A stretch of DNA of 42,122 nucleotides, taken from the NCBI GenBank assembly GCA_964516695.1, contig CAZEZJ010000001.1:7241-49362 (forward strand), read 5' to 3'. Positions 1 to 14,071 of the stretch are shown here, one piece after another. The DNA is from an uncultured Blastocatellaceae bacterium. GTDB lineage: Bacteria; Acidobacteriota; Blastocatellia; Pyrinomonadales; Pyrinomonadaceae. The notes beneath the pieces were generated by a model that was not told where the DNA came from, did not search any database, and was given only the letters and a program-made list of their open reading frames with translations. How positions within the stretch are numbered: the first letter of the stretch is position 1; each line of letters starts with the position of its first letter. Position numbers and translations under genes: made by a program.

Positions 1-1416
1 TGTTTTAGTCCGAGCCATGAAGGTGTGGCTCTCTTCGACGAAGGCGTACAGCGGCCCACGACGACCGCCGGACACACGGGCAGCAACGCCATCGAATTCT
101 CTCAATCGGCGGATACGCTCTACGGTTATAACAACGAGTCAACCGAATTTGGCTTCCGTAAGATGAATGTGAGCGCCGCCGGTGTAGCGGTGACGAGCGT
201 GACGCAGAACTCCATCTATGGCTTCGGCGTGGACATCAAGGCCGACAACGGCCTGATTTACTCAAACACAGGTCTCGTCATTGACCCGCAGACGGGCGCA
301 CGCGTCGGCACGTTTAGCGGCCCCGGTTTCGGTTCTCTGGTCGCGCCGGATTCAGCGACGGGCCGCGTCTATTTCCTCACTCCCCAATCTTCGACTATGC
401 TTTTGCGCGCCTACGATATGCGTACCTATCTGCCCATTGATGCCGTTCGCATCACAGGCGTGAGCGGCACGCCGACCGGCCTCATTCGCTGGGGCGCGGT
501 CGGGCTGGCCTTCCGCACAGACACGGGCCGCGTCTATCTGGTTCGCACGCATCTCGTGCCCGCCGCCAATCAGCCGAGCGATTTTGACGGCGACGGCAAG
601 GCGGACGAAGCAATCTGGCGTCCCAGCGACGGCAACTGGCACATTCGTCAAAGCTCGGATAATTCTTCCAGAGTTCAGTACGACTGGGGCAGCGGCGCTC
701 TCGGAGACGTGGCCGTGCCGGGCGACTACGACGGCGACCGCAAGACTGACTTCGCCGTCTGGCGCAAGCCCGAAGGTAATTGGTACATTGTGCGCAGTTC
801 GACCAATACCGTGAGCGTGCAAAATTGGGGCGACAGCAGCGACGTGGCTGTGCCGGGCGATTATGACGGCGACCGCAAAGGTGATTTGGCCGTCTGGCGG
901 CCCTCGGACGGCAACTGGTATGTCCTGCAAAGCCTGACGAACACGGTCAGGATATACAACTGGGGAACTCTCGGAGACACGCCTGTGCCCGGAGACTACG
1001 ACCGCGACGGGCGCACGGATGCCGCCGTCTTCCGTTCAGGCGAGGGCAATTGGTACATCCTTCAGAGCGCGACTAACACGGCGCGGCTGGTCAGTTGGGG
1101 CGGCGGCGGAGACAAGCCTGTCGCAGCCGATTATGACGGCGATGGCCGGACGGACGTGGCCGTCTTCCGCGAAGCTGAAGGCAGTTGGTACATCCGCCGT
1201 AGTTCCAACAACACCGTCAGGGTGAAAAGCTGGGGCCTCGCCGGTGATGCGGCTGTTCCGGCGGACTACGACGGCGACGGGCAAGCTGACCTCGCCGTCT
1301 GGCGTCCCTCGGACGGCAATTGGTACATCCTCCAAAGCATTACCAACACCGTGCGCGTTCACGGCCTCGGCCTCTCCGGCGATGTCTGTGTTCCGTCCGC
1401 TTACCTGCCGCAGTAA
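1..1416 (+). CDS. FG-GAP/VCBS-like repeat protein, C-terminal part (5' end outside window)
   Basis: Frame 1 is open from nt 1, so the gene starts upstream. nt 580-1413 encode six tandem ~45-47 aa repeats D[YF]DGD[GR]xxDxAVWRPSxGNWYI...WG..GD.PVPG, which is the Ca-binding DxDGDG propeller-blade signature. The protein ends ...PSAYLPQ. Confidence 0.8.
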   Translation, partial: CFSPSHEGVALFDEGVQRPTTTAGHTGSNAIEFSQSADTLYGYNNESTEFGFRKMNVSAAGVAVTSVTQNSIYGFGVDIKADNGLIYSNTGLVIDPQTGARVGTFSGPGFGSLVAPDSATGRVYFLTPQSSTMLLRAYDMRTYLPIDAVRITGVSGTPTGLIRWGAVGLAFRTDTGRVYLVRTHLVPAANQPSDFDGDGKADEAIWRPSDGNWHIRQSSDNSSRVQYDWGSGALGDVAVPGDYDGDRKTDFAVWRKPEGNWYIVRSSTNTVSVQNWGDSSDVAVPGDYDGDRKGDLAVWRPSDGNWYVLQSLTNTVRIYNWGTLGDTPVPGDYDRDGRTDAAVFRSGEGNWYILQSATNTARLVSWGGGGDKPVAADYDGDGRTDVAVFREAEGSWYIRRSSNNTVRVKSWGLAGDAAVPADYDGDGQADLAVWRPSDGNWYILQSITNTVRVHGLGLSGDVCVPSAYLPQ

Positions 1417-1448: not shown

Positions 1449-1503
1449 GCAGATGAAGATAGCCGTCGCAGACACTATGACTGCGACGGCTATCTTCATC
1501 TGC
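1449..1503. terminator. Perfect 23-bp inverted repeat between convergent genes (putative bidirectional terminator)
   Basis: GCAGATGAAGATAGCCGTCGCAG (1449-1471), 9-nt loop, CTGCGACGGCTATCTTCATCTGC (1481-1503), followed by TTTA. It lies between the stop at 1416 (+) and the stop at 1525 (-). Confidence 0.6.
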
Positions 1504-1524: not shown

Positions 1525-3540
1525 CTAGCCTTTCGGAATTTCGATGCCGATGGCTTGGAGAAATCCGGTGGGCTTATCGCCGCCGATGAGCGCGAAGATA
1601 TAATCGTTTGGCAGCTTTATCTTCTCTTCTCTCGTGCGCGCGTCCATCAGCGCGACTTCGCCGTCCGCGATTGATTTGATGGCTTCGCCCAGACGCAACT
1701 TGATTTTGCCTTCGTCGATACACTGGTAGACCTGTAGCTTGTTGCCAAACTTCAAATCGTTCTTAAAGTCGCTGCGCACGACGAGCGTGACGTCGTTAAT
1801 CTCCGGCGGTGGACGAAAAACAATCTGCTCGCCGTCGCGCCGCGCGACCAAATCCACGGCGGCCTCAACGGCTGAGTTGCCGCCGCCGACGATGATGACG
1901 CGGCGACGTTTGAAGTCGTCAGGGTTGGAAAGCTTGTACATCACCTTGCTGCCCGTTTGCCCGTCGCGCGTAATCTGCATGTCTTCATTTTTGACGCCGA
2001 GCCGCATCGGCGTGCCGCGATTGCCGATAGCCAGCACGACGCGCCGCGCGCGATACGTCGCCTTCACCTTCTGCGGGCCTTTCTCCGTCTCAATCAAAAA
2101 ATAATCGCCGTCCTCGGCCTTCAAGACCTTCTGGCAACTCTCGCCTTCGTTGATGTGAACGTCGCCCGCCCTCATGTTGTTGAGCCACGTTTCCAGCATC
2201 TCCTCGCGTTGCTCTCCGGCGATTTTCTTGCGCATCTCGCCCATAATCTTTTCGCGCAAACCCTTGACCAACTGCGCGCGCGCGCTCTCATTGAGATTGC
2301 CGCGTAAGGGGGAAACGACCTGTTCCATCGTCTCGACGACCATCAGCTTGCGCTGCTCTATCGGCATCTCTAAAGACTGCGTTCCCGCTTTATCTTGCAA
2401 AGCCTCCGCCACGGGCAGAGCGCGTTTACCGTGTCCAGAGTCCGTCATCTGCCCGGAGAGTTCGTCCACGATGATTTCGCAGATGGCTGTCAACATCAGG
2501 TCGCGCTGTTCGGAAGCGAGTTTGTCCGCTTTCTTAAAAAGCGATTCGATAATCCGGCGCACGAGCGCGATGTCGCGCACCAGCGCATCCGAATCCGCCG
2601 CGCTTTGTTCGCTGAGGAGTTTGGCGAGCGCTTCTTCGACAAGCTGCTCGCGATGGTCGTATAGCCCTGGAACTTCTATTGCGCCGCGCCATTCCATCGT
2701 CTCCGGCTTGAGAAAAACGTACTTGCCCTTCGGATACGCATCAATCGTCGCCAGCACTTTGTCCTGCTCGATGGCGACGAACTTGAGATTGCATTTGCGC
2801 GCCATCAAAGCCGCTGACAATCCTGCGACGCCAATGCCGATGACGGCCACATCAAGCTCCGCCTTCGGCTCCGGCGCGACACCGTTATTCAGTTCTTGCG
2901 CGATGTGCTTGATGACATCCGCGCCTTCGTTAGCGGCGTTTTTGATGAGCGGCGTGCCCGACACATCGCCGATGATGTAGCAGCCCGCAACGTTCGTCAT
3001 AAACTTTTCGTTGCGCACGGGAACGGGACGCGGGCGTATCTTCTTGGTCGTGTTGACGACGATACACGCCTTCGGATTAACGGGACATTCAAGCTGGCAG
3101 GCCGTGTCTTCCAAACACTGGTCGGGAGCAACAGGCGTGGCGATGTTGTCCTTCATCGCCAACACGTCGTGCGGGCACGCATCAACGCAGGCATGACAGC
3201 CGATGCAGCGGTTCGGAAAAATAACGGGGTGCGGATAGTCCGGCCCATTCGGGTCTAAGAGTGCGAGTTCTTCAGGTGTAATCGGAATGGTCAGGTCAAC
3301 ATCGTCGTCAACAACTTTCGGCGGCGCGGCTGGCTTGGTCAACAAATAACGGGCCAGAGCCGCATCGCTCAAAGCGAAGCCGACGGCGACGATGATGAGA
3401 AATACACTGATGCCCGCCCACCCGTACCACGGCAGGCCGCCGAAGTAGCTCTTCAAAAACTCGCCCTCGCCGGACCACTGGTTAATCGCCAGCAGCAACA
3501 TCAGAAGCGCGAGAATAAGCAGCAATTGCGACTTCTTCAT
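1525..3540 (-). CDS. Membrane-anchored 4Fe-4S ferredoxin / FAD- and NAD(P)H-binding pyridine nucleotide-disulfide-type oxidoreductase
   Basis: Two N-terminal hydrophobic helices. CIGCHACVDACP (canonical CX2CX2CX3CP) plus an atypical CLEDTACQLECP. GxGxxG (VIGIGVAG) and GxGxxA (VGGGNSAVEAA) dinucleotide folds. An AGCYIIGDV flavin motif and a long charged helical insert are also present. Confidence 0.8.
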   Translation of the reverse strand: MKKSQLLLILALLMLLLAINQWSGEGEFLKSYFGGLPWYGWAGISVFLIIVAVGFALSDAALARYLLTKPAAPPKVVDDDVDLTIPITPEELALLDPNGPDYPHPVIFPNRCIGCHACVDACPHDVLAMKDNIATPVAPDQCLEDTACQLECPVNPKACIVVNTTKKIRPRPVPVRNEKFMTNVAGCYIIGDVSGTPLIKNAANEGADVIKHIAQELNNGVAPEPKAELDVAVIGIGVAGLSAALMARKCNLKFVAIEQDKVLATIDAYPKGKYVFLKPETMEWRGAIEVPGLYDHREQLVEEALAKLLSEQSAADSDALVRDIALVRRIIESLFKKADKLASEQRDLMLTAICEIIVDELSGQMTDSGHGKRALPVAEALQDKAGTQSLEMPIEQRKLMVVETMEQVVSPLRGNLNESARAQLVKGLREKIMGEMRKKIAGEQREEMLETWLNNMRAGDVHINEGESCQKVLKAEDGDYFLIETEKGPQKVKATYRARRVVLAIGNRGTPMRLGVKNEDMQITRDGQTGSKVMYKLSNPDDFKRRRVIIVGGGNSAVEAAVDLVARRDGEQIVFRPPPEINDVTLVVRSDFKNDLKFGNKLQVYQCIDEGKIKLRLGEAIKSIADGEVALMDARTREEKIKLPNDYIFALIGGDKPTGFLQAIGIEIPKG

Positions 3541-3548
3541 AACTCTTC

Positions 3549-3617
3549 AGGTTTCAAGGTTTCGAGTTTCAGGTTTCAAGTTCTGCTCCGTAACTTGAAA
3601 CCTGACACTTGAAACCT
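3549..3617 (-). repeat. Nested palindrome of GGTTTCAAG-type units in an intra-operon spacer
   Basis: Core perfect 12-bp stem AGGTTTCAAGTT (3571-3582) / AACTTGAAACCT (3592-3603) with a 9-nt loop. Extra copies of AGGTTTCAAG lie 5' and of CTTGAAACCT lie 3'. It fills the 80-nt gap between the cytochrome gene stop and the flavoprotein gene start. Confidence 0.7.
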
Positions 3618-3620
3618 AAT

Positions 3621-5120
3621 TTATTGCGCGATGAGCGCAGGCTCCGTGGTCTTCAAATCCTTGATGATGGGCAAGCCCGCGGGCGCGCCAAAGAGCTTGG
3701 GCGTCCAGTGTATGTCTTTGATGTGTTGGACGTGGCAAGAGGTGCAGCTTGGCCCGCTGGCCGAAGGCATTTTAGCATCGGCGCGCTCGAAGAAAAGATT
3801 TGTATGACACTTCGAGCAGGTCGTGCGCGGGCTTTCGCGGTCGAGGCGTGCGCCGATGTAGCCCGTGCGGTGGCAACTGCTGCAAGACATCACACGGTTT
3901 GTGTTGTCAACGTCTTCAATGCCGTGGACGTTGAAGGGCACGCGCACGCGGTACATATGAATGCCGTGAAACTGCACGTTGCGCCAGTTGCGTTGATTGT
4001 CCGGCGTGACGCGATTCTTCCTTAACAGTTCGACGACTTCGGGCCTCACGGCCAGTTCTTCCGCGTCCAGTCCCTTCCAAACCCACTCGCCGTTTTTCAC
4101 CGGATAGCCGAAGGTGCCGCCGTGCGGAGTATGCACGCTCTTGCCGTTGTAGAGTTTCTTGTTGTTGTCGTTGTGGCAGCGGGCGCAGGCATCGAGCGCG
4201 TAGTTCATCGGGCTGAAATTCTCGCCGCGATGCTCCGTGTGGCAACTCATGCAGCCGATTCCGGCGTCGCGATGAGGCTTGATGACCGTGGCCGTGAAAC
4301 CGTCGGTCGTATGACAAGAGGTGCAGTTGGCCTCGATGCTGTTCGCCATCGTGTGGCAGTTTGTGCATGAGCCGGCGTTCGGTTTAGTGGCAATCGCGGG
4401 GATGAGCGAAAAGGAGGTCGCGTTGTGCGGGTTCGAAATGGGCTGCGGCGCAAACGCGTTGGCGTGAGCGTACCAGGCCAGAACTGACAGCCCGCCGATG
4501 ACGAGAGCGCCCCAGACGAAAATCGAGAAGGTCCACGGGCGAACCAAATCGCGCGTCGGCGTCCAGTTAAAACGCGACTTGCCGACGTGCGGCGGGCGGC
4601 GCGGGTGCAAGGGGCTGGGGCGTCCGGCCTTCTCGCGCGTGCGCTTGCCCCAGAAGACCTTGAGCGCGTCGGCCACTTCCGACGACGCGCGCTTGGCCGC
4701 GGCGCGCTGCTGCATCGCCCGCATCTCGCTCGACTTTGCGCCGCTCGTCCGCGCTTCAACCTCTCCGACGTTCATCGCAAACTGGTGCGAGACTCTGATA
4801 TGCAAATCGTTGTGGCGATAGTCGAAGTAAAGAGAAAAGGGACCGATTTGCAGAACGTCGCCGTCAGCGAGCGCTTCCGCTTCGTCAGCTTCGATGAGCC
4901 GCCCGTTGAGCGTCGTCGAGCTTGAGCGGCTAAGATTGATGAGAAAGAAGCGTCCGGCGATGAAGTTGATTCCGGCATGGAGGCGCGAAACCGAAGGATG
5001 ATTAAGAGAGACTTCGCACTCCGGCAGACGGCCCACGCGCAAGCCCTCTGTGACCAGCGTGGTCGAGTCTTGCGCACGGTCCTCGCGCGTGATGACGATG
5101 GTGCCTCTCTGTACGTCCAT
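3621..5120 (-). CDS. FHA domain - single TM - heptaheme c-type cytochrome fusion protein
   Basis: N-terminal FHA signature (GR...VSRLHA...LSRSSSTTLNG). Hydrophobic helix WTFSIFVWGALVIGGLSVLAWYA at aa ~196-218. Seven CXXCH motifs: CTNCH, CTSCH, CMSCH, CARCH, CSSCH, CSKCH, CTSCH (aa 252-463, nt ~3711-4373). Confidence 0.85.
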   Translation of the reverse strand: MDVQRGTIVITREDRAQDSTTLVTEGLRVGRLPECEVSLNHPSVSRLHAGINFIAGRFFLINLSRSSSTTLNGRLIEADEAEALADGDVLQIGPFSLYFDYRHNDLHIRVSHQFAMNVGEVEARTSGAKSSEMRAMQQRAAAKRASSEVADALKVFWGKRTREKAGRPSPLHPRRPPHVGKSRFNWTPTRDLVRPWTFSIFVWGALVIGGLSVLAWYAHANAFAPQPISNPHNATSFSLIPAIATKPNAGSCTNCHTMANSIEANCTSCHTTDGFTATVIKPHRDAGIGCMSCHTEHRGENFSPMNYALDACARCHNDNNKKLYNGKSVHTPHGGTFGYPVKNGEWVWKGLDAEELAVRPEVVELLRKNRVTPDNQRNWRNVQFHGIHMYRVRVPFNVHGIEDVDNTNRVMSCSSCHRTGYIGARLDRESPRTTCSKCHTNLFFERADAKMPSASGPSCTSCHVQHIKDIHWTPKLFGAPAGLPIIKDLKTTEPALIAQ

Positions 5121-5130
5121 AACTTTTTGC

Positions 5131-5251
5131 GAGTGATAGGTGATGGGTAATAGGTGATAAGTAAAAGAAAGATGTTTTCTCCTATCAACTATTACCTATC
5201 ACCCATCACTCTTTTACTTATCATCTATCACTCATCGCTTTTCACTACTTG
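5131..5251. repeat. Heptamer-built imperfect palindrome (GTGATRR family), copy 1
   Basis: 5133-5167 = GTGATAG GTGATGG GTAATAG GTGATAA GTAAAAG. 5182-5251 = CTATCAA CTATTAC CTATCAC CCATCAC TCTTTTA CTTATCA TCTATCA CTCATCG CTTTTCA CTACTTG. The arms are complementary and fill the spacer between two same-strand genes. Confidence 0.8.
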
Positions 5252-7744
5252 CTAATGCGCCCTGAAGTAGACGACCTGAAAAATGTGCACGAGCATGAGC
5301 GCCAGCATTAAAGAGGTGGAGACGACGTGCGGCGCGAGCCAGAGCTTGAGCAGTTGGTGCAGGTAGATGAGCGCATCAACGCGCCGCAGCGTGGCGGTCG
5401 TCTCGATGGCTTCGATTAAGAGACGCCGCGCCGCGGGGTCTAGCAAGTCTCCCGCCGCACGCTCAAACGTGGTGCGGGCCTCGGCCCACAGCGCCGTCAA
5501 TTCCTCGCGCCGGATATACTGCCGCAGCAAATATCTGAACGAGAGAAAACGCTTGCGCACCTTGCGCGTGATGAGCTTGCGCAATTTGGTTTGGTCCGGC
5601 TCGGCAATGGTCGCAATCTCGTCGCTAATCTGCGAGAGCGTTTCGCGCAATTCCGCGCGCCGCTCTCTTAAGTCTTCGATGAGCAGCGGGTCGCCTTCGA
5701 TGCTGGTCATAATGCGCGGCACGACGACGTAACAAATGATGCCGAAGAGTCCGGTGACGATGACGAGGTCGAACGTGACCATCAGGAGCGAAGTCAGCAG
5801 CCCGCCGGAGGAGCGCCCGCCGTGCAGGAGCAAGACGATGCCGGCGATTAATCCCAGATAGACGTGCGACAGCATCCAGTAGCGCAAGGGGCCTGCGCGG
5901 CGGCGGTAAATCTGCTTGCGCGCCGGATAGACCATCACCCACGCGATGCCGAAGAGTCCAACGAAGCCCGTCAACCAGCGCACGGTCAGCCAACTGCTGC
6001 CGCCTAGAAGCGCGTCCATCGTGTACTTACGCGCGGCCCAGAAAGTTAAAACAGTCAGGGCAACGGTCGCCAAGATTCCGCCGATGTGCCACATCAAAGC
6101 AACGGGGTCGCGCTTGTGTATGTTGCGCCCGATGGCGTGCGTCTGGTCGCGGAAGATGAGACCGATAGCGTTTTTCGCCTCGCTGAAATATTCACGTGGG
6201 TTCACGCGCACGAGCGCGCCCGTCGGGCAATTCTCCTCGCAGGAGTAAGCATGACGGCGCGTGCCCACGGGATTGAGCGGCGTGTTGTTGCAGAGATTGC
6301 ATTTGACGGCGAGCAGGTTTTCCGTCTCCGTCACAGGCAGAGGCTTTCGCGGCTCTGCGAGCGTCACCCAGTCAACGAGACGTGCGGGCAGACTGATGTG
6401 CGGTAGAGAGGCTTTGCGCGGAATCATCGAAATCGCGTTGTAGGGACATTGCGTGGCGCAATCGCCGCAGCCGATGCAGGTCTTCGGGTTAATGTCTATC
6501 TGCCCGCCGGCGAAGCGTCCGATGGCTCCGGTCGGGCAGCCCGTCAGGCATTCAGGGTCTTGGCAGTGTAGGCAGACGGCGGGCATCAAGACATGCTGAA
6601 TGGAAGCGCGTTGCGGCTCGACGGGGCGCGAGATGTGTATGCCGCGCCTGAGCAGCCTCGACTGGCCGTGAATCTTATGACAGGCCAGCGAGCAATTGCC
6701 GCAACGGACGCACAAGTCCATGTCCATCACGAGCAGATTCATGCCGTCAACGACGCCCGTGGAAATCTCCTTTCCGGCGGCCATCACCACGCGCTTGTCG
6801 GCGGCGGGCTGCGGCGCGGCGGCGTCAGCCAAACCGGAGAAGGCGGCAAACTCCGCGAGCACGGCGGCGCGCAAATCAGGATTGGCTTGCAAGTAAGAGA
6901 CGGAAATCTCCAACACTTCGGTGCGCGCCATGACGGTCGCCGTGTAGAGCCAATCTTGCTGTTCGCGCAGGGCTTCGAGGCCGAGGCAATTGCCAGCGCC
7001 GAGAAAGTCAACGCCCATCTGCTCGCTCACACCCAAGACCATCTCCGACAGTTCAGGGTTGAAGGCCACGCCGCGCGTGCGCCTGACCCAACCGTTTTTG
7101 ATGAAGACGACGCGATTGATGGGGTCTTTCTCTTGAAAGAGCACGTGGTTTTTTCCGTAGACGGTAAAGCGCGCGGCGTTGCCAAGTTTCTTCAGCAGTT
7201 CAGGACTGAAGGCGTTGCCCGCCGCTTGTCTGACATCTTCGAGCGTGCGTTTTAATCCGTGGTCGCGGTAGGTCACGTCGAGCATGTGGCCGAACTTCGG
7301 AAGCTTGCGCAGCAGTCGAAACGCGGGCCGCTGGATTTCGAGCACCTTGGCCTCTGCTTCCGGCGAAGCAATGACGGATGCGTTGCGCGGCAAGCCCGCC
7401 AGCACGGCCATCTCGCCAAAACTCTTGCCTTGCGGAATCTCCGCGACCTTCGCGCTCTTGCCGCTCTCATCCTGAACGAAAACGTCCACCTTGCCTTCGA
7501 CCAGAATATAGAAGGCGTTGCCGCCCCAGTCGCCCTGATTGATGATTTTCTCGCCCGGCTCGTAAATCCAGTAAGTCGCATAGGGGCCGACCTTCTTGCC
7601 CGCGTAGTTGCGCCCGTAGACGATGACTTCCAAATCAAGCTCATACTTGAAATGGCCGTCTTGACGGTCAACCAATTCGGCAATCAGGTCAACGCTCTTG
7701 ATGGCTTCGAGGATGCTTGTGTGATTGGTGATTTCGCGAGGCAT
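5252..7744 (-). CDS. Tandem cyclic-nucleotide-binding domains + four-cluster ferredoxin (DmsB/NrfC-like Cys pattern) + 5-TM domain with two HX13H helices
   Basis: The first CAP-type domain has the cassette FGEMAVLAGLPRNASV; the second is degenerate (GLEAL...LYTATV). Cys groups: CVRCGNCSLAC, CLHCQDPECLTGCP, CIGCGDCATQCP, CNLC...CEENCP. C-terminal TM helices include SHVYLGLIAGIVLLLHG and PHVVSTSLMLALMLVHI. No signal peptide is present. Confidence 0.85.
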   Translation of the reverse strand: MPREITNHTSILEAIKSVDLIAELVDRQDGHFKYELDLEVIVYGRNYAGKKVGPYATYWIYEPGEKIINQGDWGGNAFYILVEGKVDVFVQDESGKSAKVAEIPQGKSFGEMAVLAGLPRNASVIASPEAEAKVLEIQRPAFRLLRKLPKFGHMLDVTYRDHGLKRTLEDVRQAAGNAFSPELLKKLGNAARFTVYGKNHVLFQEKDPINRVVFIKNGWVRRTRGVAFNPELSEMVLGVSEQMGVDFLGAGNCLGLEALREQQDWLYTATVMARTEVLEISVSYLQANPDLRAAVLAEFAAFSGLADAAAPQPAADKRVVMAAGKEISTGVVDGMNLLVMDMDLCVRCGNCSLACHKIHGQSRLLRRGIHISRPVEPQRASIQHVLMPAVCLHCQDPECLTGCPTGAIGRFAGGQIDINPKTCIGCGDCATQCPYNAISMIPRKASLPHISLPARLVDWVTLAEPRKPLPVTETENLLAVKCNLCNNTPLNPVGTRRHAYSCEENCPTGALVRVNPREYFSEAKNAIGLIFRDQTHAIGRNIHKRDPVALMWHIGGILATVALTVLTFWAARKYTMDALLGGSSWLTVRWLTGFVGLFGIAWVMVYPARKQIYRRRAGPLRYWMLSHVYLGLIAGIVLLLHGGRSSGGLLTSLLMVTFDLVIVTGLFGIICYVVVPRIMTSIEGDPLLIEDLRERRAELRETLSQISDEIATIAEPDQTKLRKLITRKVRKRFLSFRYLLRQYIRREELTALWAEARTTFERAAGDLLDPAARRLLIEAIETTATLRRVDALIYLHQLLKLWLAPHVVSTSLMLALMLVHIFQVVYFRAH

Positions 7745-8266
7745 AGAATGCTCAACTCATGGCCGAAAACGGCGCAAGCATCAACCCCATAGCTACCGCC
7801 TGGCACTCTTTCGGCTTCGGGGAAACTCAGCATCGCTGCTCTGAGGCTTTTATACCACTAATCAGGCAAAGGATGAACAGTAAAGCTGTTGGCGCTCTGA
7901 GGCCAGCGGCCGGCAATCAGTTGTTCGCTAGCGACGGCTAATTTATCTTCCGCCGCTCTCCTTTTCTGAGACACACAACCGGCGACCGCAGGCGCGCGAC
8001 ACACCGCTCGCCGCGCGGAACTAACCACTGACAGCTTTATCTCTTTTTGTGATACCATGCGCTCTGTTCGATTCACAAACAATGCTCTCAGAGTTGTCCG
8101 CTCGGGCGGTCTGTCGCGCCCTGTGTTTGCCGCCGCCCGATGATGACGACTCATCGAAGTCACGCACGTGCTTTTGCGCCTGGCTTTGCCCCCGCCGAGA
8201 GCGCCCGGAGGGGCGCGCCTTTAGCGGGCGTTTAATTTCCGACCTCCGCATCTGAGGAGCCAATTT

Positions 8267-11131
8267 ATGAGCAACAATCTGCTTGCATTGATGAAGCTGG
8301 GCCAATCCATCTGGTACGACAATATCCGGCGCGCGATGCTGGAAAGCGGCGACTTGCAGACGAAGATAACGGAAGACGATTTGCGCGGCGTCACGTCGAA
8401 CCCGACCATCTTTGAAAAGGCCATCACCGGCTCAACAGACTACGATGAGCAGTTTCGCTCGCTCGCTAGCTCGGGCAAGAGCGTGCAGGAGATTTACGAA
8501 GCGCTGGTGCTCGAAGACATCGGTGACGCCGCCGATATCCTCCGGCCCGTTTACGACAAGACTAACGCGCTCGACGGCTACATCAGCCTCGAAGTCAACC
8601 CGCGATTGGCCTACGATACACAGGGCACGATTGAGGAAGCCGAGAGACTGTTCAAGCAGTTGAATCGTCCGAACGTGATGATTAAGATTCCGGCCTCGCA
8701 AGAAGGCTTGCCCGCCATCGAGGAGAGCATCTATCGCGGCATCAACATCAACATCACGATGATTTTCGCCATCGCCAATTACGAGCAGGTGGCCGAAAGC
8801 TTCATCAGAGGACTCGAACGCCGCGCCGCCGAAGGCAAGCCGGTCGAGCGCATCGCATCGGTCGCCAGCTTTTTCGTTTCGCGCGTTGACACGAGCATTG
8901 ATAAAGAGTTGGAAGACCGCGCCGAGAAAGCGGCCACCCCCGAAGAGAAACAGCGTTTGGAAAGCTTGCTGGGCCGCGCGGCCATCGCCAACGCGAAGCT
9001 TGCTTACCAGAAATTCAAAGAGATTTTCCACGGCGAGAGATTCAAGGCGCTCAAAGCACAGGGCGCGCAAGTGCAGCGCTGCTTGTGGGCTTCGACGGGA
9101 ACGAAGAATCCGAAGTATTCGGACGTCCTGTATGTTGATAATCTGATTGGCCCGGAGACGGTCAACACCGTTCCGCCCGCGACCTACACAGCCGTTCGCG
9201 ACCACGGGCGCGTGGAGTTAACGCTCGAAGAGAATCTGGACGAAAGCCGCGCTCTCATCGCTCAACTTTCAGGATTAGGCATCGACCTGAAGGCCGTGAC
9301 CGACAAGCTACAGCAGGACGGGCTGACGGCTTTCGTCGGCTCGTTTGACACGCTCGTCGAATCCATCGAAGCCAAACGCGACGCCCTTCTCTCCGGCATT
9401 CAAGGGAGGCTCGTGTCCAGCTTGGGAAAGTACGCTGACGCGGTGAACGCCGCGCTCAAGGAGGCGGACAAGGGCGAGGTGATGCGCCGCATCTGGCGCA
9501 AAGACGCCTCGCTTTGGAAGACGGACGAAGCGCACCAGAAGATTATCAAAAACGCGCTCGGCTGGCTGAACGTGCCCGACGCGATGATTGGCGTCGAGGA
9601 TGATTTGATAGCCTTCGCTGACCGCATTCGCGAGGGTGGCCGTTTTCGTCACGTCATGCTCTGCGGGATGGGCGGCTCGTCGCTCTGCCCCGAGGTCTTT
9701 CGTCAAACCTTCGGCGCGCAAAGCAACTATCCCGAACTGCTCGTCCTCGATTCGACAGACCCGGACGTGCTCGAAAGTTTCTCCCGGCAGATTGACCTCA
9801 AAAGCTGTCTCTTTATCATCTCTTCAAAATCGGGCACGACGACCGAACCGCTCGCCTTCTACAAATATTGGTACGACCAGGTAAGTAAGGTGAGCGACAA
9901 CCCGGGCGAGAGCTTCGTCGCCATCACAGACCCCGGCACGAAGATGGAGCAGATGGCGACTGAAGACAAATTCAGGCGCATCTTTCTCAACCCGCCGGAC
10001 ATCGGCGGGCGCTACTCCGCGCTCTCTTACTTCGGCATTGTCCCGGCAGCGCTCGCTGGCCTCGACATCACGAAATTGCTCGACCGCGCGGAGCGCATCG
10101 TTCATTCTTGCGCATCGGTCGTCCCGGCAGCCGAAAATCCCGGCGCGCGTCTGGGCGCAATCCTCGCGGAGTGTGCGCGGGCCGGACGCGATAAGCTGAC
10201 CATCATCGCTGACCCGAAAATCAGCGCGCTCGGCCTCTGGATTGAACAACTCGTCGCGGAAAGCACCGGCAAGGAAGGCAAAGGAATCTTGCCCGTCTCG
10301 GGCGAGCCGCTCGGGGGCCCATCCGTTTACGGTGATGACCGCCTCTTCGTCTCTCTGGCGGTCGGTCGCATTGACGGCGAGACGGAAGTGAAGCTCAAAG
10401 CGCTCGCAGCCGCGGGCCACCCAATCGTTTATCGCACGCTGACGGATTTGTACGACTTGGGCGAAGAGTTTTTCCTGTGGGAGATTGCGACCGCGTTCGC
10501 CGGCTATCGTCTCGGCATCAATCCGTTTGACCAGCCCAACGTGCAGGAATCGAAGGACGCCACCAAAGAACTGCTCGACGCGTTTACACAAAGCGGCGCG
10601 TTGACAGAGCAGATGATGCTCGCGACCGACGGCACGTTGACCGTCTACGTTGACGAACCCGTGCGCGCTCTTCCGTCTTCTTCCGTGGGCGACGTTCTCG
10701 CAGCACATTTATCAAGGGCGGGCGCGGGCGACTACATCGCGTTGCTCAGCTACATAGAGGAAACACCCGAGCACGAAGCCCTGCTTCAGGCCATCCGCAC
10801 CAGCTTGCGCGACGCGACCCGTTGTGCGACAACCACGGGCTACGGCCCGCGCTTTCTGCATTCGACCGGACAACTGCATAAGGGCGGCTCCGACGCTGGC
10901 GTCTTTCTGCAAATCACCGCGCCAGACCACACAGACCTTCCTATTCCCGAAGCGGCTTACACCTTTAGCATTCTCAAGCAGGCGCAAGCGCTCGGTGATT
11001 TTCGTTCGCTCTCATCGAGAGGCCGCCGCGCCATTCGCGTTGACTTAGGTGCGGACGCGGTCGCAGGTCTCAGGCAGTTGCAACAACTAATCGGCGCAGC
11101 CATCCCGCGCTCCGAAGCACAGAAGCAGTAA
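8267..11131 (+). CDS. tal-pgi: Bifunctional transaldolase / glucose-6-phosphate isomerase
   Basis: 954 aa. The N-terminal ~370 aa look like transaldolase (LGQSIWYDNIRR..., TSNPTIF, MIKIPA). The C-terminal part looks like PGI (GMGGSSL, SKSGTT-E). A GAGGAG RBS lies 8 nt upstream of the ATG. Confidence 0.9.
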   Translation: MSNNLLALMKLGQSIWYDNIRRAMLESGDLQTKITEDDLRGVTSNPTIFEKAITGSTDYDEQFRSLASSGKSVQEIYEALVLEDIGDAADILRPVYDKTNALDGYISLEVNPRLAYDTQGTIEEAERLFKQLNRPNVMIKIPASQEGLPAIEESIYRGININITMIFAIANYEQVAESFIRGLERRAAEGKPVERIASVASFFVSRVDTSIDKELEDRAEKAATPEEKQRLESLLGRAAIANAKLAYQKFKEIFHGERFKALKAQGAQVQRCLWASTGTKNPKYSDVLYVDNLIGPETVNTVPPATYTAVRDHGRVELTLEENLDESRALIAQLSGLGIDLKAVTDKLQQDGLTAFVGSFDTLVESIEAKRDALLSGIQGRLVSSLGKYADAVNAALKEADKGEVMRRIWRKDASLWKTDEAHQKIIKNALGWLNVPDAMIGVEDDLIAFADRIREGGRFRHVMLCGMGGSSLCPEVFRQTFGAQSNYPELLVLDSTDPDVLESFSRQIDLKSCLFIISSKSGTTTEPLAFYKYWYDQVSKVSDNPGESFVAITDPGTKMEQMATEDKFRRIFLNPPDIGGRYSALSYFGIVPAALAGLDITKLLDRAERIVHSCASVVPAAENPGARLGAILAECARAGRDKLTIIADPKISALGLWIEQLVAESTGKEGKGILPVSGEPLGGPSVYGDDRLFVSLAVGRIDGETEVKLKALAAAGHPIVYRTLTDLYDLGEEFFLWEIATAFAGYRLGINPFDQPNVQESKDATKELLDAFTQSGALTEQMMLATDGTLTVYVDEPVRALPSSSVGDVLAAHLSRAGAGDYIALLSYIEETPEHEALLQAIRTSLRDATRCATTTGYGPRFLHSTGQLHKGGSDAGVFLQITAPDHTDLPIPEAAYTFSILKQAQALGDFRSLSSRGRRAIRVDLGADAVAGLRQLQQLIGAAIPRSEAQKQ

Positions 11132-11206
11132 AAGGAGGAATGATGAACGCGGAACGATGAACTATTCGAAGCTTGTCTTTGACTGCCGCGTTCATCGTTC
11201 CTCCTT
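11132..11206 (+). repeat. Long hairpin in the tal-pgi / zwf spacer
   Basis: AAGGAGGAATGATGAACGCGG (11132-11152) pairs 20/21 with CCGCGTTCATCGTTCCTCCTT (11186-11206). The 33-nt loop carries a central AAGCTT. Confidence 0.7.
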
Positions 11207-11229
11207 CATCATTTTTCCGAAGGAAAGTT

Positions 11230-12771
11230 ATGTCCTCGATTGTCATGGAAAACCCTCTGCGTGAGGGCATCAGGCTTGAACGAACGGCCGGGCCGTGTGC
11301 GGTCGTCATTTTCGGGGCGAGCGGCGATTTGACGAAACGCAAGCTCTTGCCCGCGCTCTACAGGCTGGTGCAGCAGCGTCTTGTCCCCGCCGAGTTTGCC
11401 ATTGTGGGCCTCGCGCGAACGGAGATGACGAGCGAAGAGTTTCGCGCGCGGATGCGGGAAGCGATTGAGGAGTTTTCGGCGGAGAAGAGCGTTGACGAAG
11501 AGGTCTGGAATTCGTTTGCGCAGAGCCTCTACTACATCACCGGCGACATCAACACGCCCGCCGATTACGTGAAGCTCACCGAACTGCTCGAACAGGTTGA
11601 CCGCGAGCGCGGCACGCAAGGCAACCGCCTCTTTTATTTGTCCGTCGCGCCGCGCTTCTACAGCGAAGCCGTCAAGCAGTTGGGCGAGGCCGGACTCGCC
11701 AAAGCTCAAGACGGAGCGTGGGTGCGCGTCATCATCGAAAAGCCGTTCGGCTCTGACTTGACGAGCGCACGCGCTCTCAATCAGGAGATTCACCAGCACC
11801 TACACGAGTCGCAAATCTATCGCATCGACCATTATCTCGGCAAAGAGACCGTGCAGAATTTGCTGGTCTTTCGTTTCGCCAACGGCATCTTCGAGCCGCT
11901 CTGGAATCGCCAGTACATAGACCACGTTCAACTGACGAACGCCGAGGCGGTCGGCGTTGAAGGACGCGGCGGCTACTACGAGACGGCGGGCGTCGTGCGC
12001 GACATGATTCAGAACCACGTCTTTCAGGTGCTTTCGCTAGTCGTGATGGAGCCGCCCGCGAGCCTCGATTCGGAAGCCGTGCGCGACGAAAAATATAAGG
12101 CGATGATGGCCGCGCGCCCGTTCACAACTGAGCGCGTGCGCGAGGAATGCGTGCGCGGGCAATACGGGCCGGGTTCGATTGCGGGTCAACCCGTGCCCGG
12201 CTACCGGCAGGAAGAGGGCGTCGCGCCTGACTCCGCGACCGAGACCTTCGCGATGCTCACCATGTACTTCGACAACTGGCGCTGGGCGGGCGTGCCCTTC
12301 TTCATCCGCTCCGGCAAGCGCCTGCCAAAGCGCGTCACAGAGATTGCGATTCAATTCAAGTCTGCCCCGCTACAGCTTTTCGGTGAAGCCGGAGAACACG
12401 TCGCGCCCAACCAACTCATCATCCGCATTCAGCCCGACGAGGGCATTACGCTTCGCTTCGCCGCCAAGATTCCAGGACAGACGACCAACATCCGCGAAGT
12501 CAACATGGACTTTCGCTACGGCGCATCCTTCGGCATCCAACTCGCGGAGGCTTACGAACGCCTCCTGCTAGATTGCATCCTTGGCGATTCCACGCTCTAC
12601 GCGCGCAAGGACATGACCGAACACGGCTGGGAACTCGTCATGCCTATCCTAGACGAATGGGCCGCGACGAAAAACGAGGTTGAGTTTCCCAACTACGAAG
12701 CCGGAACCTGGGGGCCACAAAGCTCTCACGAGATGCTCGAACGCACGGGCCGCCGCTGGCGCAGGCCGTAA
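11230..12771 (+). CDS. zwf: Glucose-6-phosphate 1-dehydrogenase
   Basis: Motifs VIFGASGDLTKRKL, RIDHYLGKE and EKPFG. The ATG at 11230 is preferred over the TTG at 11173, which lies inside the upstream hairpin. Confidence 0.92.
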   Translation: MSSIVMENPLREGIRLERTAGPCAVVIFGASGDLTKRKLLPALYRLVQQRLVPAEFAIVGLARTEMTSEEFRARMREAIEEFSAEKSVDEEVWNSFAQSLYYITGDINTPADYVKLTELLEQVDRERGTQGNRLFYLSVAPRFYSEAVKQLGEAGLAKAQDGAWVRVIIEKPFGSDLTSARALNQEIHQHLHESQIYRIDHYLGKETVQNLLVFRFANGIFEPLWNRQYIDHVQLTNAEAVGVEGRGGYYETAGVVRDMIQNHVFQVLSLVVMEPPASLDSEAVRDEKYKAMMAARPFTTERVREECVRGQYGPGSIAGQPVPGYRQEEGVAPDSATETFAMLTMYFDNWRWAGVPFFIRSGKRLPKRVTEIAIQFKSAPLQLFGEAGEHVAPNQLIIRIQPDEGITLRFAAKIPGQTTNIREVNMDFRYGASFGIQLAEAYERLLLDCILGDSTLYARKDMTEHGWELVMPILDEWAATKNEVEFPNYEAGTWGPQSSHEMLERTGRRWRRP

Positions 12772-12775
12772 AAAC

Positions 12776-12849
12776 GGTAATAGGTGATAAGTGATGGGTG
12801 ATAAGTAAAAGCTTTTCTCCTATTACCTATCACCCATCACCCATCACTG
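12776..12849. repeat. Heptamer-built imperfect palindrome (GTGATRR family), copy 2
   Basis: GGTAATA GGTGATA AGTGATG GGTGATA AGTAAAA GC TTTTCTC CTATTAC CTATCAC CCATCAC CCATCAC. The centre is AAAAGCTTTT (12807-12816). It fills the zwf/opcA spacer. Confidence 0.8.
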
Positions 12850-12861
12850 TTTTTGAGAGTT

Positions 12862-14028
12862 ATGGAAACACAGACGCACGAAAGCACGGTTTCGGTCTCG
12901 ACGCTGCGAGGGATTGATGTCGGCAGGATAGAGAAGGAACTGGCGATGATGTGGCAGCAGGCATCTGCCGTGGGACAGGGCGCGGATGACGCGGGCGTGG
13001 TGCGCGCGTGCGCGTTGAATCTGATTGTTTACACGACCGCGCAGGAAGACCGCGCGCAGATAAACGAGATGCTCGAAGCGATTAACGAGCGGCATCCGGG
13101 ACGCGCGCTGGTGCTGGTGGCCGACCGCGCTTCGAGCGCTTCGAGCCTTGAGGCTTACGTCTCCAGCCGTTGTCGCGCGCTGGGCGCGAGCAAGCGGCAG
13201 GTCTGCGGCGAGCAGGTGACGATTGAAGCGGCTGGGCCAATCGTTGAGATGGCAGCCAGCGCTATCGCCCCGCTGCTCGTGCCCGACGTGCCTGTCTTTC
13301 TCTGGTGGAAAGACATTCCGCATGATGACGATAAATTGTTTGACCGCATGGCCCGCATGTCGGACCGCGTGGTGATTGATTCGGCGGCCTTCGACCACCC
13401 GCGCGAAGACCTGCTGCGCTTGGCAGACATAGTGCGCTCGCTTGGGCGAGACACGCGCATCTCCGACCTCAACTGGGGACGCCTGACTTCATGGCGAACG
13501 CTGCTGGCGAGTTTCTGGGACGTGGCGGAATATCGCCCGCATCTTGAGCGCATTGAAAGCGTGAAGATAGAGTATGACCCGCCCGATGTCGCGCCAGGCG
13601 AGATAGCGCCGAAGGCTCTGCTCGCCGCGGGCTGGCTCGCCTCGCGGCTCAATTGGAAGTTGGAAGAGGACGGCGCAACGAGAGAGGGCGACACGTCGCG
13701 CTTCAGGTTTACGACAGCGGCGGCGCAACCGCTCGTTGTCGAAATGCGTGCGCTGCATGATGAACAAGGAGCGGACGGAATGCTGGCCTCTTTAACTCTG
13801 ACGGAAGCGACAAACCGCGCCAGCTTTTCCGTCGCTCTCAGCCGCGACGGACACAGGCTGGAAACAAAAGCCAGCATGGATGACACACACACGGTCGGGC
13901 GCGTGCTGGCCTATGAACAGAAAAGCGAGGGGCAGCGTCTTAGCCGCGAGCTTGGCTTGCTGGCGCGTGACCGTATCTATGAGCAAACGCTCTTTCTCGC
14001 CGCCGAATTGACCGCCGCCGTAAAATAG
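12862..14028 (+). CDS. opcA: OpcA-like glucose-6-phosphate dehydrogenase assembly/effector protein
   Basis: It sits immediately after zwf. The length (~390 aa) fits, and the VRACALNLIVY-type N-terminal motif is recalled from the OpcA family. The ATG at 12862 is preferred over the TTG at 12853. Confidence 0.7.
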   Translation: METQTHESTVSVSTLRGIDVGRIEKELAMMWQQASAVGQGADDAGVVRACALNLIVYTTAQEDRAQINEMLEAINERHPGRALVLVADRASSASSLEAYVSSRCRALGASKRQVCGEQVTIEAAGPIVEMAASAIAPLLVPDVPVFLWWKDIPHDDDKLFDRMARMSDRVVIDSAAFDHPREDLLRLADIVRSLGRDTRISDLNWGRLTSWRTLLASFWDVAEYRPHLERIESVKIEYDPPDVAPGEIAPKALLAAGWLASRLNWKLEEDGATREGDTSRFRFTTAAAQPLVVEMRALHDEQGADGMLASLTLTEATNRASFSVALSRDGHRLETKASMDDTHTVGRVLAYEQKSEGQRLSRELGLLARDRIYEQTLFLAAELTAAVK

Positions 14029-14071
14029 AGAGTATCAAAATGTTCTGCTCTTAAATCTCTGTAGCGACGTG

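Follow-up and report, generated by a model that had tools for sequence, protein, structure and literature searches.

A minus-strand gene module of an uncultured Blastocatellaceae bacterium encodes a putative transmembrane electron-transfer complex with cyclic-nucleotide-binding and FHA domains

The stretch of DNA analyzed here (the window; 42,122 nucleotides, positions 7,241 to 49,362 of contig CAZEZJ010000001.1 in assembly GCA_964516695.1) comes from an uncultured Blastocatellaceae bacterium and carries three co-directional minus-strand genes, termed A, B and C, which an earlier note had read as a signal-gated transmembrane electron wire. The open reading frames (ORFs) lie exactly where the note placed them, at 7744-5252 (gene A), 5120-3621 (gene B) and 3540-1525 (gene C), and their features are listed in Table 1. 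All the domains that the note had proposed for the three proteins are confirmed by searches with the hidden Markov models (HMMs) of Pfam and NCBIfam. Its interpretation is supported as far as comparative genomics goes, with the corrections that are given below, and none of the tests proposed in the note that were applied here speaks against it.

The gene A product matches PF00027 (cNMP_binding) in two stretches of a Pfam search with an E-value of 7e-26, in agreement with the tandem CAP-type cyclic-nucleotide-binding (CNB) domains of the earlier note, the first of them intact. The phosphate-binding cassette of the first domain, CNB-A, is canonical: it reads FGEMAVLAGLPRNASV (aa 109-124, nt 7373-7420) and carries F109-G-E-M-A-V-L followed by P-R120-N-A-S. 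F109, G110, E111, R120, N121 and A122 are invariant in 15 close sequences, and the cassette Gly and Arg are invariant in 16 distant sequences with a mutual identity of 23-45%; the F-G-E...R.A residues are kept in at least 90% of 93 sequences that span both clades. CNB-A is a member of PF00027 that scores above the gathering cut-off and has both the Gly-Glu and the Arg-x-Ala residues, whereas CNB-B does not have them. The best PDB sequence matches of this part of the protein are the CNB domains of PKG and PKA-R. In the sequence of CNB-B, the Gly-Glu and Arg of the cassette (FGE/R) are not present, and this domain is therefore probably not a nucleotide binder.

The following domain of gene A would bind four [4Fe-4S] clusters through 16 cysteines, which fall into the groups 345/348/351/355, 391/394/399/403, 423/426/429/433 and 482/485/502/506 and are all invariant in the 15 close and the 16 distant sequences. 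The pattern is that of a four-cluster ferredoxin, and PF13247 (Fer4_11) is matched with 29.3 bits against a cut-off of 26.2. At the level of the domain, NCBIfam indicates a kinship with four-cluster ferredoxins of the NrfC/DsrO/ArrB/HybA type, and the PDB matches are HycB4, PsrB and NrfC. The scores against the NCBIfam respiratory equivalogs (NrfC, DsrO, HmcB, ArrB and TtrB) are far under the cut-offs, with 60.7 bits against 450 for ArrB and 54 against 200 for DsrO. No Sec or Tat signal is found at the N-terminus of the gene A product, and the ferredoxin sits behind the cytoplasmic CNB domains. Additionally, inspection of the ORFs and Pfam matches reveals no NrfD-like gene within the three-gene module.

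Hydropathy and a motif map of the C-terminal membrane domain give approximately five transmembrane (TM) helices and two HX13H pairs, His627/His641 on TM3 and His806/His820 on TM5; the earlier description of a four-cluster ferredoxin that lacks a Sec or Tat signal and is fused to a membrane domain with two HX13H helices thus holds. The four histidines are invariant in the alignments of 15 close, 16 distant and 93 sequences, and G593, R609, W623, G631, T651, G665, P676, E683 and D691 are further invariant positions among the 93. An AlphaFold2 model of aa 520-830 based on these 93 diverse sequences (pLDDT 84.7, pTM 0.77) contains TM1 (547-575), TM2 (582-612), TM3 (620-642), TM4 (649-683) and a long helix (770-829) that includes TM5, which agrees with the hydropathy analysis. 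The TM2-TM3 loop (ARKQIYRRRAG) is strongly basic and is therefore placed on the cytoplasmic side, and the cytoplasmic FeS domain fixes the same orientation. In the model, TM3 and TM5 are predicted to be oriented alike, from the inside to the outside, and one His pair would therefore lie near each face, H627/H806 near the cytoplasmic and H641/H820 near the periplasmic face. The domain thus shows a di-heme pattern of four conserved histidines on two TM helices with a pair per face, and their i/i+14 spacing is the one found in cytochrome b of bc1 and in NOX.

Among 14 diverse members of the family, DUF4405 (PF14358) is weakly matched in eight (best E 7.5e-6), PF01292 (Ni_hydr_CYTB, prokaryotic cytochrome b561) in four (E ≥ 8.7e-4) and PF01794 (Ferric_reduct) in one (E 2.5). 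In five individually scanned members the DUF4405 scores are 12-20 bits against a gathering cut-off of 26.7, and these matches are confined to the His-bearing helices; none of the three di-heme cytochrome b families is matched by the membrane domain at gathering level. Experiments have demonstrated heme b binding by DUF4405, which has been proposed to carry electrons across the membrane and to be related to MsrQ and PepSY-like cytochromes (PMC11334425). We conclude that the membrane domain of gene A would work like a di-heme transmembrane wire and that it fits no existing family.

Gene B encodes the FHA domain, single TM helix and seven CXXCH motifs that had been described for it. The residues of the phospho-Thr pocket (G-R, S-x-x-H and N-G) are kept in at least 90% of the orthologues, as in a regular member of the FHA family, and the PDB matches of the domain are GarA and OdhI. 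The CXXCH motifs are at positions 252, 266, 290, 312, 413, 435 and 459, and 73 of 74 orthologues have exactly seven of them. There are also exactly seven extra conserved periplasmic histidines (232, 283, 297, 333, 385, 388 and 466), which would be enough for seven bis-His hemes. The protein scores above the cut-offs of Cytochrom_c3_2, Cytochrome_C7 and Paired_CXXCH_1 and belongs to the multiheme cytochromes c. The matches to the models of NapC/NirT/NrfH/CymA remain low (NrfH, E 0.02 and 15 bits against 134; DmsE, 30 bits against 192) in libraries that contain no ImcH model. All seven heme motifs and H232/283/297/385/388/466 align with fused Myxococcota-type proteins, and the FHA-TM-heme-TM-Fer4 order of these fusions, together with the single TM helix of gene B, would place the heme domain outside.

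Gene C combines a ferredoxin with NAD(P)H and FAD folds, as the earlier note had recognized, and is additionally anchored by two N-terminal TM helices that the note did not mention. The flavoprotein part, with its two Rossmann motifs, is a member of the Pyr_redox families (Pyr_redox_3, E 2e-27, 96.6 bits against 30; Pyr_redox_2, 71 bits against 26.1). The PDB matches of gene C comprise YpdA/Bdr and the thioredoxin reductase (TrxR)-type ferredoxin-NADP reductase (7a76, 3ab1, 2zbw) as well as PsaC-like ferredoxins, and the closest solved relatives of the flavoprotein are TrxR-like NADPH enzymes, which include ferredoxin-NADP reductases. Against the model of the YpdA/Bdr bacillithiol-disulfide reductase, TIGR04018, the protein obtains 109 bits with a cut-off of 339.9. 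Gene C is not YpdA because this score is well under the cut-off and because the flavoprotein is fused to a ferredoxin and a membrane anchor. A charged helical insertion of 148 aa (aa 293-440, nt 2221-2664, minus strand), which the note had overlooked, is lineage-specific: it occurs in a minority of the orthologues (661-672 aa), and most (516-520 aa) are without it. In the module as a whole, the Cys and His residues are the most conserved ones in both clades and fit a consistent topology, which is consistent with their proposed role as cofactor ligands.

Table 1. Coordinates of the genes, domains and other features discussed in the text. Positions refer to the window unless a locus is named; ΔG values are in kcal/mol.
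Feature	Position (nt)	Strand	Residues	Description
Gene A	5252..7744	-	830 aa	cNMP-binding domains (two), 4x[4Fe-4S] ferredoxin, 5-TM putative di-heme b domain
CNB-A	7316..7564	-	aa 61-143	PF00027, 90.4 bits against a cut-off of 27.5
CNB-B	6845..7204	-	~aa 181-300	second PF00027 stretch, degenerate, reads LGAGNCLGLEAL
Gene A ferredoxin domain	6215..6733	-	aa 338-510	four-cluster [4Fe-4S]; Fer4_11 and Fer4_7 above cut-offs
Gene A membrane domain	5255..6118	-	aa 543-830	TM1-TM4, cytoplasmic helical insert (~689-765), TM5
Gene B	3621..5120	-	499 aa	FHA, linker, one TM helix, periplasmic heptaheme c-type cytochrome
Gene B FHA domain	4842..5039	-	aa 28-93	PF00498, E 4e-14, 53.2 bits against a cut-off of 20.7
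Gene B TM helix	4476..4532	-	aa 197-215	follows the conserved juxtamembrane motif GKxRFNWxPTRDLxRPW
Gene B periplasmic heme domain	3723..4427	-	aa 232-466	seven CXXCH and seven conserved distal His
Gene C	1525..3540	-	671 aa	two TM helices, 2x[4Fe-4S] ferredoxin, TrxR-like FAD/NAD(P)H flavoprotein
Gene C membrane anchor	3355..3525	-	aa 6-24 (TM1), aa 44-62 (TM2)	short periplasmic loop with conserved FGGLPWxGW between TM1 and TM2
Gene C ferredoxin	3061..3234	-	aa 103-160	Fer4 and Fer4_7; eight conserved Cys (112/115/118/122, 142/148/152/159)
Gene C flavoprotein	1528..3018	-	aa 175-671	Rossmann motifs GIGVAG (~aa 234) and GGGNSA (~aa 547)
A/B spacer	5121..5251	-		long imperfect hairpin of GTGATRG-type repeats, ΔG -44.3, z -7.6
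B/C spacer	3541..3620	-		hairpin of GGTTTCAAG-type repeats, ΔG -33.9, z -6.1
Hairpin 3' of gene C	1449..1503	-		26 bp, near-perfect, without canonical U-tract, ΔG -55.8, z -7.7
Divergent intergenic region	7745..8266			522 nt, between gene A and the Tal-PGI/zwf operon
Myxococcota-type conduit-like set	L081 2336-7948	-
Myxococcota-type conduit-like set	L083 2713-8001	+
Myxococcota-type conduit-like set	L084 2726-7996	+
Pkinase/PP2C neighbours	L082 12543-13676; P0292 locus; L085 1-4697; L086 1128-1880

The closest homologues of gene A, with 85-96% identity, are found in metagenome-assembled genomes of Pyrinomonadaceae and Blastocatellia, and the source of the window is an acidobacterium of this group. 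The family is large: more than 2,336 proteins are matched at E ≤ 1e-10 among the scored candidates, an exhaustive search yields 216 clusters (at 50% identity) at E ≤ 1e-30, with the full-length architecture down to 28-33% identity, and two peptide patterns locate gene A in at least 516 species-level genomes. For distant members of full length, the annotations read Myxococcota, Kofleriaceae or 'Deltaproteobacteria'. This breadth in phyla is drawn from a representative search, a profile of distant members and look-ups of single distant members; only Pyrinomonadaceae and other Acidobacteriota are among the top matches listed in the searches with the window sequences and in the genome scan. The homologues of genes A and B bear generic names only ('cyclic nucleotide-binding domain-containing protein', 'Fe-S-cluster-containing dehydrogenase component/CRP-like cAMP-binding protein' and 'FHA domain-containing protein').

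Gene order was compared in the 80 best genome loci, from Pyrinomonadaceae and Blastocatellia, and only loci with enough DNA were counted. Gene B follows gene A on the same strand in all 77 informative loci, and gene C follows gene B in all 69. The genes are also adjacent or fused in Myxococcota/Kofleriaceae and in Magnetococcus, so the synteny expected from the earlier note is found. An intermediate acidobacterial clade, in which the A protein is 44-59% identical to that of the window, was sampled by a metagenome scan with the distant profile; here, B follows A in 37 of 39 loci, and only eight of 26 have a C-type flavoprotein within 7 kb. The three-gene unit claimed by the note therefore stands in the close acidobacterial clade but in only part of the intermediate one, and the notion of C as a universal third subunit is rejected. 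A and B form the invariant core. C would act as the donor module of most lineages though not of every one, unless its gene lies elsewhere in the genomes where the locus lacks it.

The flanks of the module vary in the 80 loci: Tal-PGI is upstream in only approximately 10, and a set of ECF sigma, anti-sigma and PDZ genes is upstream in 38-47. At L017 (2681-7625, minus strand), for example, a large PDZ protein, an anti-sigma factor of the zf-HC2 type and an ECF sigma factor are encoded divergently upstream of gene A; in the window, the pentose-phosphate operon stands there instead. This set may exert transcriptional control of the module.

Gene fusions relate the three proteins to one another. 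In the distant clade (approximately 25-35% identity), gene A adjoins a single protein of 1,171-1,430 aa in five of five inspected loci, and this protein is a fusion of B and C. Three of these fusions, read residue by residue, consist of two to four FHA domains, a TM helix, six or seven CXXCH motifs, a TM helix, a Fer4 dicluster and Pyr_redox, and the remaining two have the same Pfam domain order; the single TM helix between the heme domain and the ferredoxin occupies the place of the gene C anchor. A 1,110-aa protein of Magnetococcus sp. YQC-9 is a fusion of C and A (Pyr_redox, two cNMP domains, four FeS clusters and the di-His TM domain), and an FHA-like, TM and eight-heme cytochrome comes next. 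P0248 (970 aa) is a second C-A fusion with Pyr_redox, two cNMP domains and four FeS clusters, in which no TM domain is detected. In P0172 (1277 aa, Logan contig), an N-terminal unknown region is followed by a B-type seven-heme domain and an A-type di-His membrane domain with no FHA or FeS; this protein is known from a single contig and is weighed lightly. As read from the encoded domains, the three independent fusion permutations would make the subunit composition unusually well defined. They are also predicted to fix the compartments, with the FHA domain, ferredoxin and flavoprotein on one side of the membrane and the heme-c domain, bracketed by TM helices, on the other.

Gene A can also be divided. 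At L085 it is cleanly split: one protein of 521 aa has the cNMP and FeS parts, and a second, of 298 aa, has the TM part with both HX13H helices. An apparently 'fully split' variant at L086 (5770-8206) is rejected: the FeS-coding sequence continues in another frame, and the neighbouring genes are also broken. L086 is a frameshifted long-read metagenome contig, and gene calls on such a contig can mimic domain splits.

Companion genes in relatives point to possible partners of the B protein. A convergent trio of cytochromes with 4, 9 and 9 CXXCH motifs follows gene B in 16 of the 18 intermediate-clade loci that lack C and also stands after gene C in many close-clade loci; extra multiheme ORFs are present in 28 of 39 long loci. 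The three proteins comprise approximately 200 aa with four CXXCH, 300 aa with nine and 360 aa with eight or nine, as at L112 (10982-13929, minus strand), with similar sets at L108, L120, L129, L130, L133, L136-L139, L153, L155, L157, L159 and L163 and at L004 (15946-16938). Neither the window nor its nearest relatives L001-L003 contain this trio, which is a candidate for the periplasmic acceptors of B. Ahead of the module in Myxococcota-type loci come a lipoprotein with 15 hemes, a heme-less protein of 529-581 aa and cytochromes with 15-17 and 6-7 hemes. The heme-less protein has a signal peptide, a C-terminal F/W and alternating hydrophobicity but no Pfam or NCBIfam match, and it looks beta-barrel-like; by analogy, the layout resembles that of porin-cytochrome extracellular electron conduits. 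Additionally, several distant loci carry Pkinase or PP2C genes only a few genes away from the module (no systematic count was made), which is consistent with a local phospho-signalling partner for the FHA domains.

On this basis, we favor with modest confidence a reading in which A, B and C are joined in a single redox complex of the inner membrane with approximately 16 cofactors, which carries electrons from the cytoplasm to the periplasm with no need of the quinone pool and in which the cNMP and FHA domains are the proposed switches. NAD(P)H would reduce the FAD on C, and the electrons would pass through the two [4Fe-4S] clusters of C to the four of A. From there they would go to a first heme b, ligated by His627/His806 close to the cytoplasmic face, then to a second heme b, ligated by His641/His820 close to the periplasmic face, and subsequently to the seven bis-His c-hemes of B, which would deliver them to a periplasmic or extracellular acceptor. 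A chain in series is the simplest model that uses every part. The outward direction is favored because the redox potentials make it downhill and the membrane potential aids it, in line with established bioenergetics. Electron flow or the assembly of the complex might be switched in response to cAMP/cGMP and Ser/Thr-kinase signalling by the N-terminal cNMP domain of A and by the FHA domain that B carries on its cytoplasmic end. Export of electrons would spend reducing power and depolarize the cell, which may explain why control elements are built in. This gating by cyclic nucleotides and phospho-Thr is suggested by the presence of the domains and by their intact binding residues. The identities of the domains, the conservation of all putative ligands, the consistent topology, the kept gene order and the fusions are shown by the data; what we infer, within this scheme, are the actual binding of the cofactors, the direction of flow, NAD(P)H as the donor, the identity of the acceptor and the gating.

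Several points weigh against this reading. The di-heme nature of the gene A membrane domain is suggested by four invariant histidines, topology and sub-threshold HMM matches, and the domain of the window has no Pfam match at E ≤ 0.1. A PDB sequence search returns nothing on aa 530-830, and a profile search gives coiled-coil noise on the cytoplasmic insert. The best Foldseek match of the model in the PDB has an E-value of 0.11, with TM-scores of at most 0.34, and consists of helical sensor domains; STEAP2 is at rank 28 (E 2.2), and the 80-residue cytoplasmic insert may hamper this comparison. The predicted model of the gene B heme domain is poor (pLDDT 56), which is too low for a fold comparison. 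Moreover, a quinone site may exist in the membrane domain of A. C is unlinked in approximately two thirds of the intermediate clade, and NAD(P)H supplied through C is therefore not a universal donor unless C is encoded elsewhere. As the earlier note had stated, no cyclase or Ser/Thr kinase is found among the larger ORFs of the window; no other ORF there bears CXXCH motifs, so acceptor cytochromes are absent from it, and acceptor cytochromes, a cyclase and a kinase are likewise not found near the module in the nearest relatives of the window. Finally, Pyrinomonadaceae are known as aerobic heterotrophs, and it is not obvious what use they would have for an extracellular electron sink.

A complex coupled to quinones would account for some of these observations in another way. 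In such a case, the five-TM domain would contain a quinone or quinol site, and the complex would be a quinol:periplasmic-cytochrome oxidoreductase similar to CbcL/ImcH or an NAD(P)H:quinone oxidoreductase from which a cytochrome branches off, in which the cytoplasmic FeS/flavoprotein arm would provide a second redox couple or have a regulatory role. Most known di-heme b proteins that are tied to multiheme cytochromes or four-cluster ferredoxins (NarI, FdnI, HydC/CbcL, DsrM and TmcC) react with quinones, and invariant polar residues (R609, T651, E683 and D691) lie in or near the membrane; the weak match of PF01292 in four of the 14 members points in the same direction, and the absence of C near 18 of the 26 intermediate-clade loci would be tolerable if quinol were the donor. 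However, no quinone-binding family is matched at significance in the Pfam, PDB sequence or Foldseek searches, and quinol dehydrogenases as simple as NrfH or CymA need no transmembrane set of His pairs. The ferredoxin of A is cytoplasmic and permanently fused to the membrane domain, and in three phyla an NAD(P)H flavoprotein adjoins it or is fused to it, which argues for the entry or exit of electrons on the cytoplasmic side. Quinone coupling is thus considered unlikely.

The signalling domains in two of the three subunits could also be taken to mean that the complex senses redox state rather than conducts electrons in bulk, with FHA and cNMP domains coupling this state to kinase and cyclic-nucleotide networks. 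Kinase/PP2C genes near the module in some loci, the ECF sigma/anti-sigma pair upstream in 43-47 of the 80 loci and the heme-bearing periplasmic sensor domains known in Geobacter are compatible with such a role. FHA and CNB are reader or input domains, however, and no output domain (kinase, cyclase, GGDEF, HTH or MCP) is present in A, B, C or the fused variants. Sixteen serial cofactors from an NAD(P)H site to the periplasm would far exceed the needs of sensing, and the frequent large multiheme cytochromes and the porin-like neighbour fit throughput, which makes a sensory complex decidedly improbable. Even less credence is given to a flow of electrons in the opposite sense, from periplasmic or extracellular donors such as Fe(II) through B and A to C, where ferredoxin or NAD(P)+ would be reduced. 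Multiheme wires are reversible in principle, FHA-cytochromes occur in 27 of 103 Gallionellaceae genomes, and a possibly related FHA-nonaheme cytochrome set, compared by its published architecture, is expressed in the Fe(II)-oxidizer Ferrigenium straubiae. Yet this likeness is one of architecture by description, the organism of the window belongs to a heterotroph lineage, and uptake would be doubly uphill: electrons would have to cross the membrane from its positive side to its negative side and climb from high-potential donors to NAD(P)+, with no ion-translocating module present. Outward export through A, B and C to periplasmic acceptors hence remains the favored model.

Comparison with known systems reveals partial likenesses of this proposed exporter to several of them. 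The operons TmcABCD, HmcABCDEF and DsrMKJOP of sulfate reducers also combine a multiheme cytochrome c on the periplasmic side and an FeS protein on the cytoplasmic side with a cytochrome b in the membrane, and their complexes join periplasmic with cytoplasmic redox chemistry, as proposed for A-B-C. The resemblance in sequence is at the level of domains (A against DsrO, 54 of 200 bits; A against HmcB, 37 of 420; B against TmcA, 24.5 of 114). In contrast to A-B-C, their cytochrome b is of the NarI/HdrE type, their cytoplasmic FeS protein has CCG motifs and resembles HdrD, their subunits of the NrfC kind are exported by Tat to the periplasm, and a flavoprotein, cNMP domain or FHA domain is absent.

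The proposed course from NAD(P)H over FAD to two stacked b-hemes on two His pairs and an outside acceptor is shared with NOX/FRE, MsrQ, PepSY-like and DUF4405 proteins, and the i/i+14 histidines on two helices of like orientation (TM3 and TM5 in gene A) recall NOX. The control of an electrogenic, depolarizing export by signalling domains also has a parallel in NOX5/DUOX. Here, however, six FeS clusters lie between flavin and heme, the subunits are separate, the output is a heptaheme cytochrome and not O2 or Fe(III) directly, and no significant sequence or fold match connects these proteins to the gene A membrane domain. The Geobacter inner-membrane cytochromes ImcH, with seven c-hemes, and CbcL, with a di-heme b and a multiheme c part, are entries to periplasmic and extracellular electron transfer, and P0172 is a CbcL-like member of the family in that a heme-c domain is fused to a di-His membrane domain. 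Nevertheless, both are quinol oxidases without cytoplasmic FeS/flavin modules or sensory domains. The earlier note had named these two as the nearest analogues; they are valid as loose analogues, but wires of the Tmc/Hmc and NOX/DUF4405 types are at least as close.

Among descriptions in the literature, a likeness in domain architecture is found in the NHC cluster of Ferrigenium straubiae, which contains an FHA-TM-multiheme cytochrome, a 5-TM protein without InterPro match and a cytosolic [4Fe-4S] protein and which, compared by its published parts list only, is probably a split A plus B. The authors of this 'novel nonaheme cytochrome' state that FHA was previously unreported with multiheme cytochromes, and they favor a role in Fe(II) oxidation or quinone reduction (bioRxiv 10.64898/2026.01.22.701106). 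A table of the Gallionellaceae pangenome lists a 'Forkhead-associated protein' with 10 CXXCH in 27 of 103 genomes (PMC10734462). The Ferrigenium and Gallionellaceae proteins differ in having nine or ten hemes, and a cNMP domain, a flavoprotein or fusions are not reported for them. These two descriptive mentions, both from Gallionellaceae, are the only ones of FHA-multiheme cytochromes found in the literature, and a full-text search did not find the combination of a cNMP-binding domain with a 4Fe-4S dicluster protein. The single domains are ordinary members of their families with intact functional residues (CAP/PKA-type CNB, FHA, NrfC/PsrB/HycB ferredoxin and TrxR-like FNR/YpdA), but no characterized protein is described with the domain combination and membrane context of A, B and C, as the earlier note had maintained for the complex. 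The module most likely encodes an uncharacterized transmembrane electron-transfer complex; its membrane domain is unclassified, and its putative signalling inputs have no known parallel to date.

The spacers between the three genes are palindromic and structured (Table 1), as had been noticed, but they are not a feature of the module. Inverted repeats in the window lie at 1449-1503, 3557-3617, 5132-5246, 11134-11218 and 12784-12848, and the last two are like hairpins outside the module, at the Tal-PGI/zwf junction and 3' of zwf, respectively. The arms consist of tandem short units (GTGATRG, GGTTTCAAG, GAACGAT and GGAGTCT). The orthologous loci L001 (10494-10584, 12085-12173), L002 (10494-10583, 12147-12236) and L005 (10464-10581) have hairpins at equivalent A/B and B/C positions with unrelated repeat units, and the unit of the L001 A/B hairpin is that of the Tal-PGI/zwf hairpin in the window. 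A role of the spacers as module-specific regulators is rejected because equivalent hairpins part unrelated genes of the window and the repeat units are swapped between loci. The hairpins are read here as a REP-like (REP/MITE-like) family of intercistronic palindromes typical of Pyrinomonadaceae genomes, and they possibly act as mRNA-processing or stability elements. Rfam returns only sub-threshold look-alikes of miRNA precursors on the spacers. The hairpin at 1449-1503 is likely the 3' end of the transcript; a scan for consensus terminators did not call it. The promoter or promoters are presumably located in the divergent intergenic region upstream of gene A, in which no sigma-70-like promoter and no Rfam family is found, and the riboswitch, promoter and terminator scans at the module gave nothing convincing.

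Divergent from gene A, a complete oxidative pentose-phosphate operon (8267-15849, plus strand) encodes a fused transaldolase-phosphoglucose isomerase (Tal-PGI, 954 aa), zwf, opcA, glucokinase and 6-phosphogluconolactonase. The main NADPH-generating route thus adjoins a putative NAD(P)H-consuming exporter, an adjacency that is seen in approximately 10 of 80 related loci and may be coincidental. The window also encodes two FG-GAP/VCBS-repeat proteins (25-1416, plus strand, and 25197-27623, minus strand). The first is directly downstream of the module in convergent orientation and contains approximately six tandem GDYDGDGKxDxAVWRPSxGxWYI repeats of approximately 45 aa; in related loci, no such neighbour is found beside the module, except for a weak one in L076.

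The exit of electrons toward periplasmic and extracellular acceptors is understood in only a handful of model organisms. To our knowledge, the known routes out of the membrane (CymA, ImcH, CbcL/CbcBA and the Gram-positive Ndh2/EetAB) all pass through the quinone pool, and we know of none among them that is regulated post-translationally by a second messenger. The present family would offer a testable candidate for a direct wire from NAD(P)H to the periplasm and an unannotated cytochrome-like membrane domain without a solved relative. It would also be a natural case of redox subunits that carry a cNMP sensor and an FHA reader as fixed parts, through which the disposal of electrons would be tied to carbon and energy signalling. 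Since the fusions define the subunit composition well, a biochemical reconstitution would be realistic. The module may additionally serve as a marker of cryptic electron-transfer capacity in abundant yet poorly cultured soil lineages, namely Pyrinomonadaceae/Blastocatellia and Kofleriaceae. The full claim, namely, a new quinone-independent inner-membrane exporter from NAD(P)H to multiheme cytochromes that is switched by cNMP and phospho-Thr, is the first of its kind and is present in at least several hundred species, is put forward tentatively and with some doubt. If it is true, this would be the first respiratory or extracellular-electron-transfer-type complex with second-messenger and Ser/Thr-kinase inputs inside its redox subunits, a prokaryotic multi-subunit functional analogue of the regulated NADPH oxidases and ferric reductases, and its carriers would be soil Acidobacteriota, Myxococcota and others that amount to at least several hundred species.

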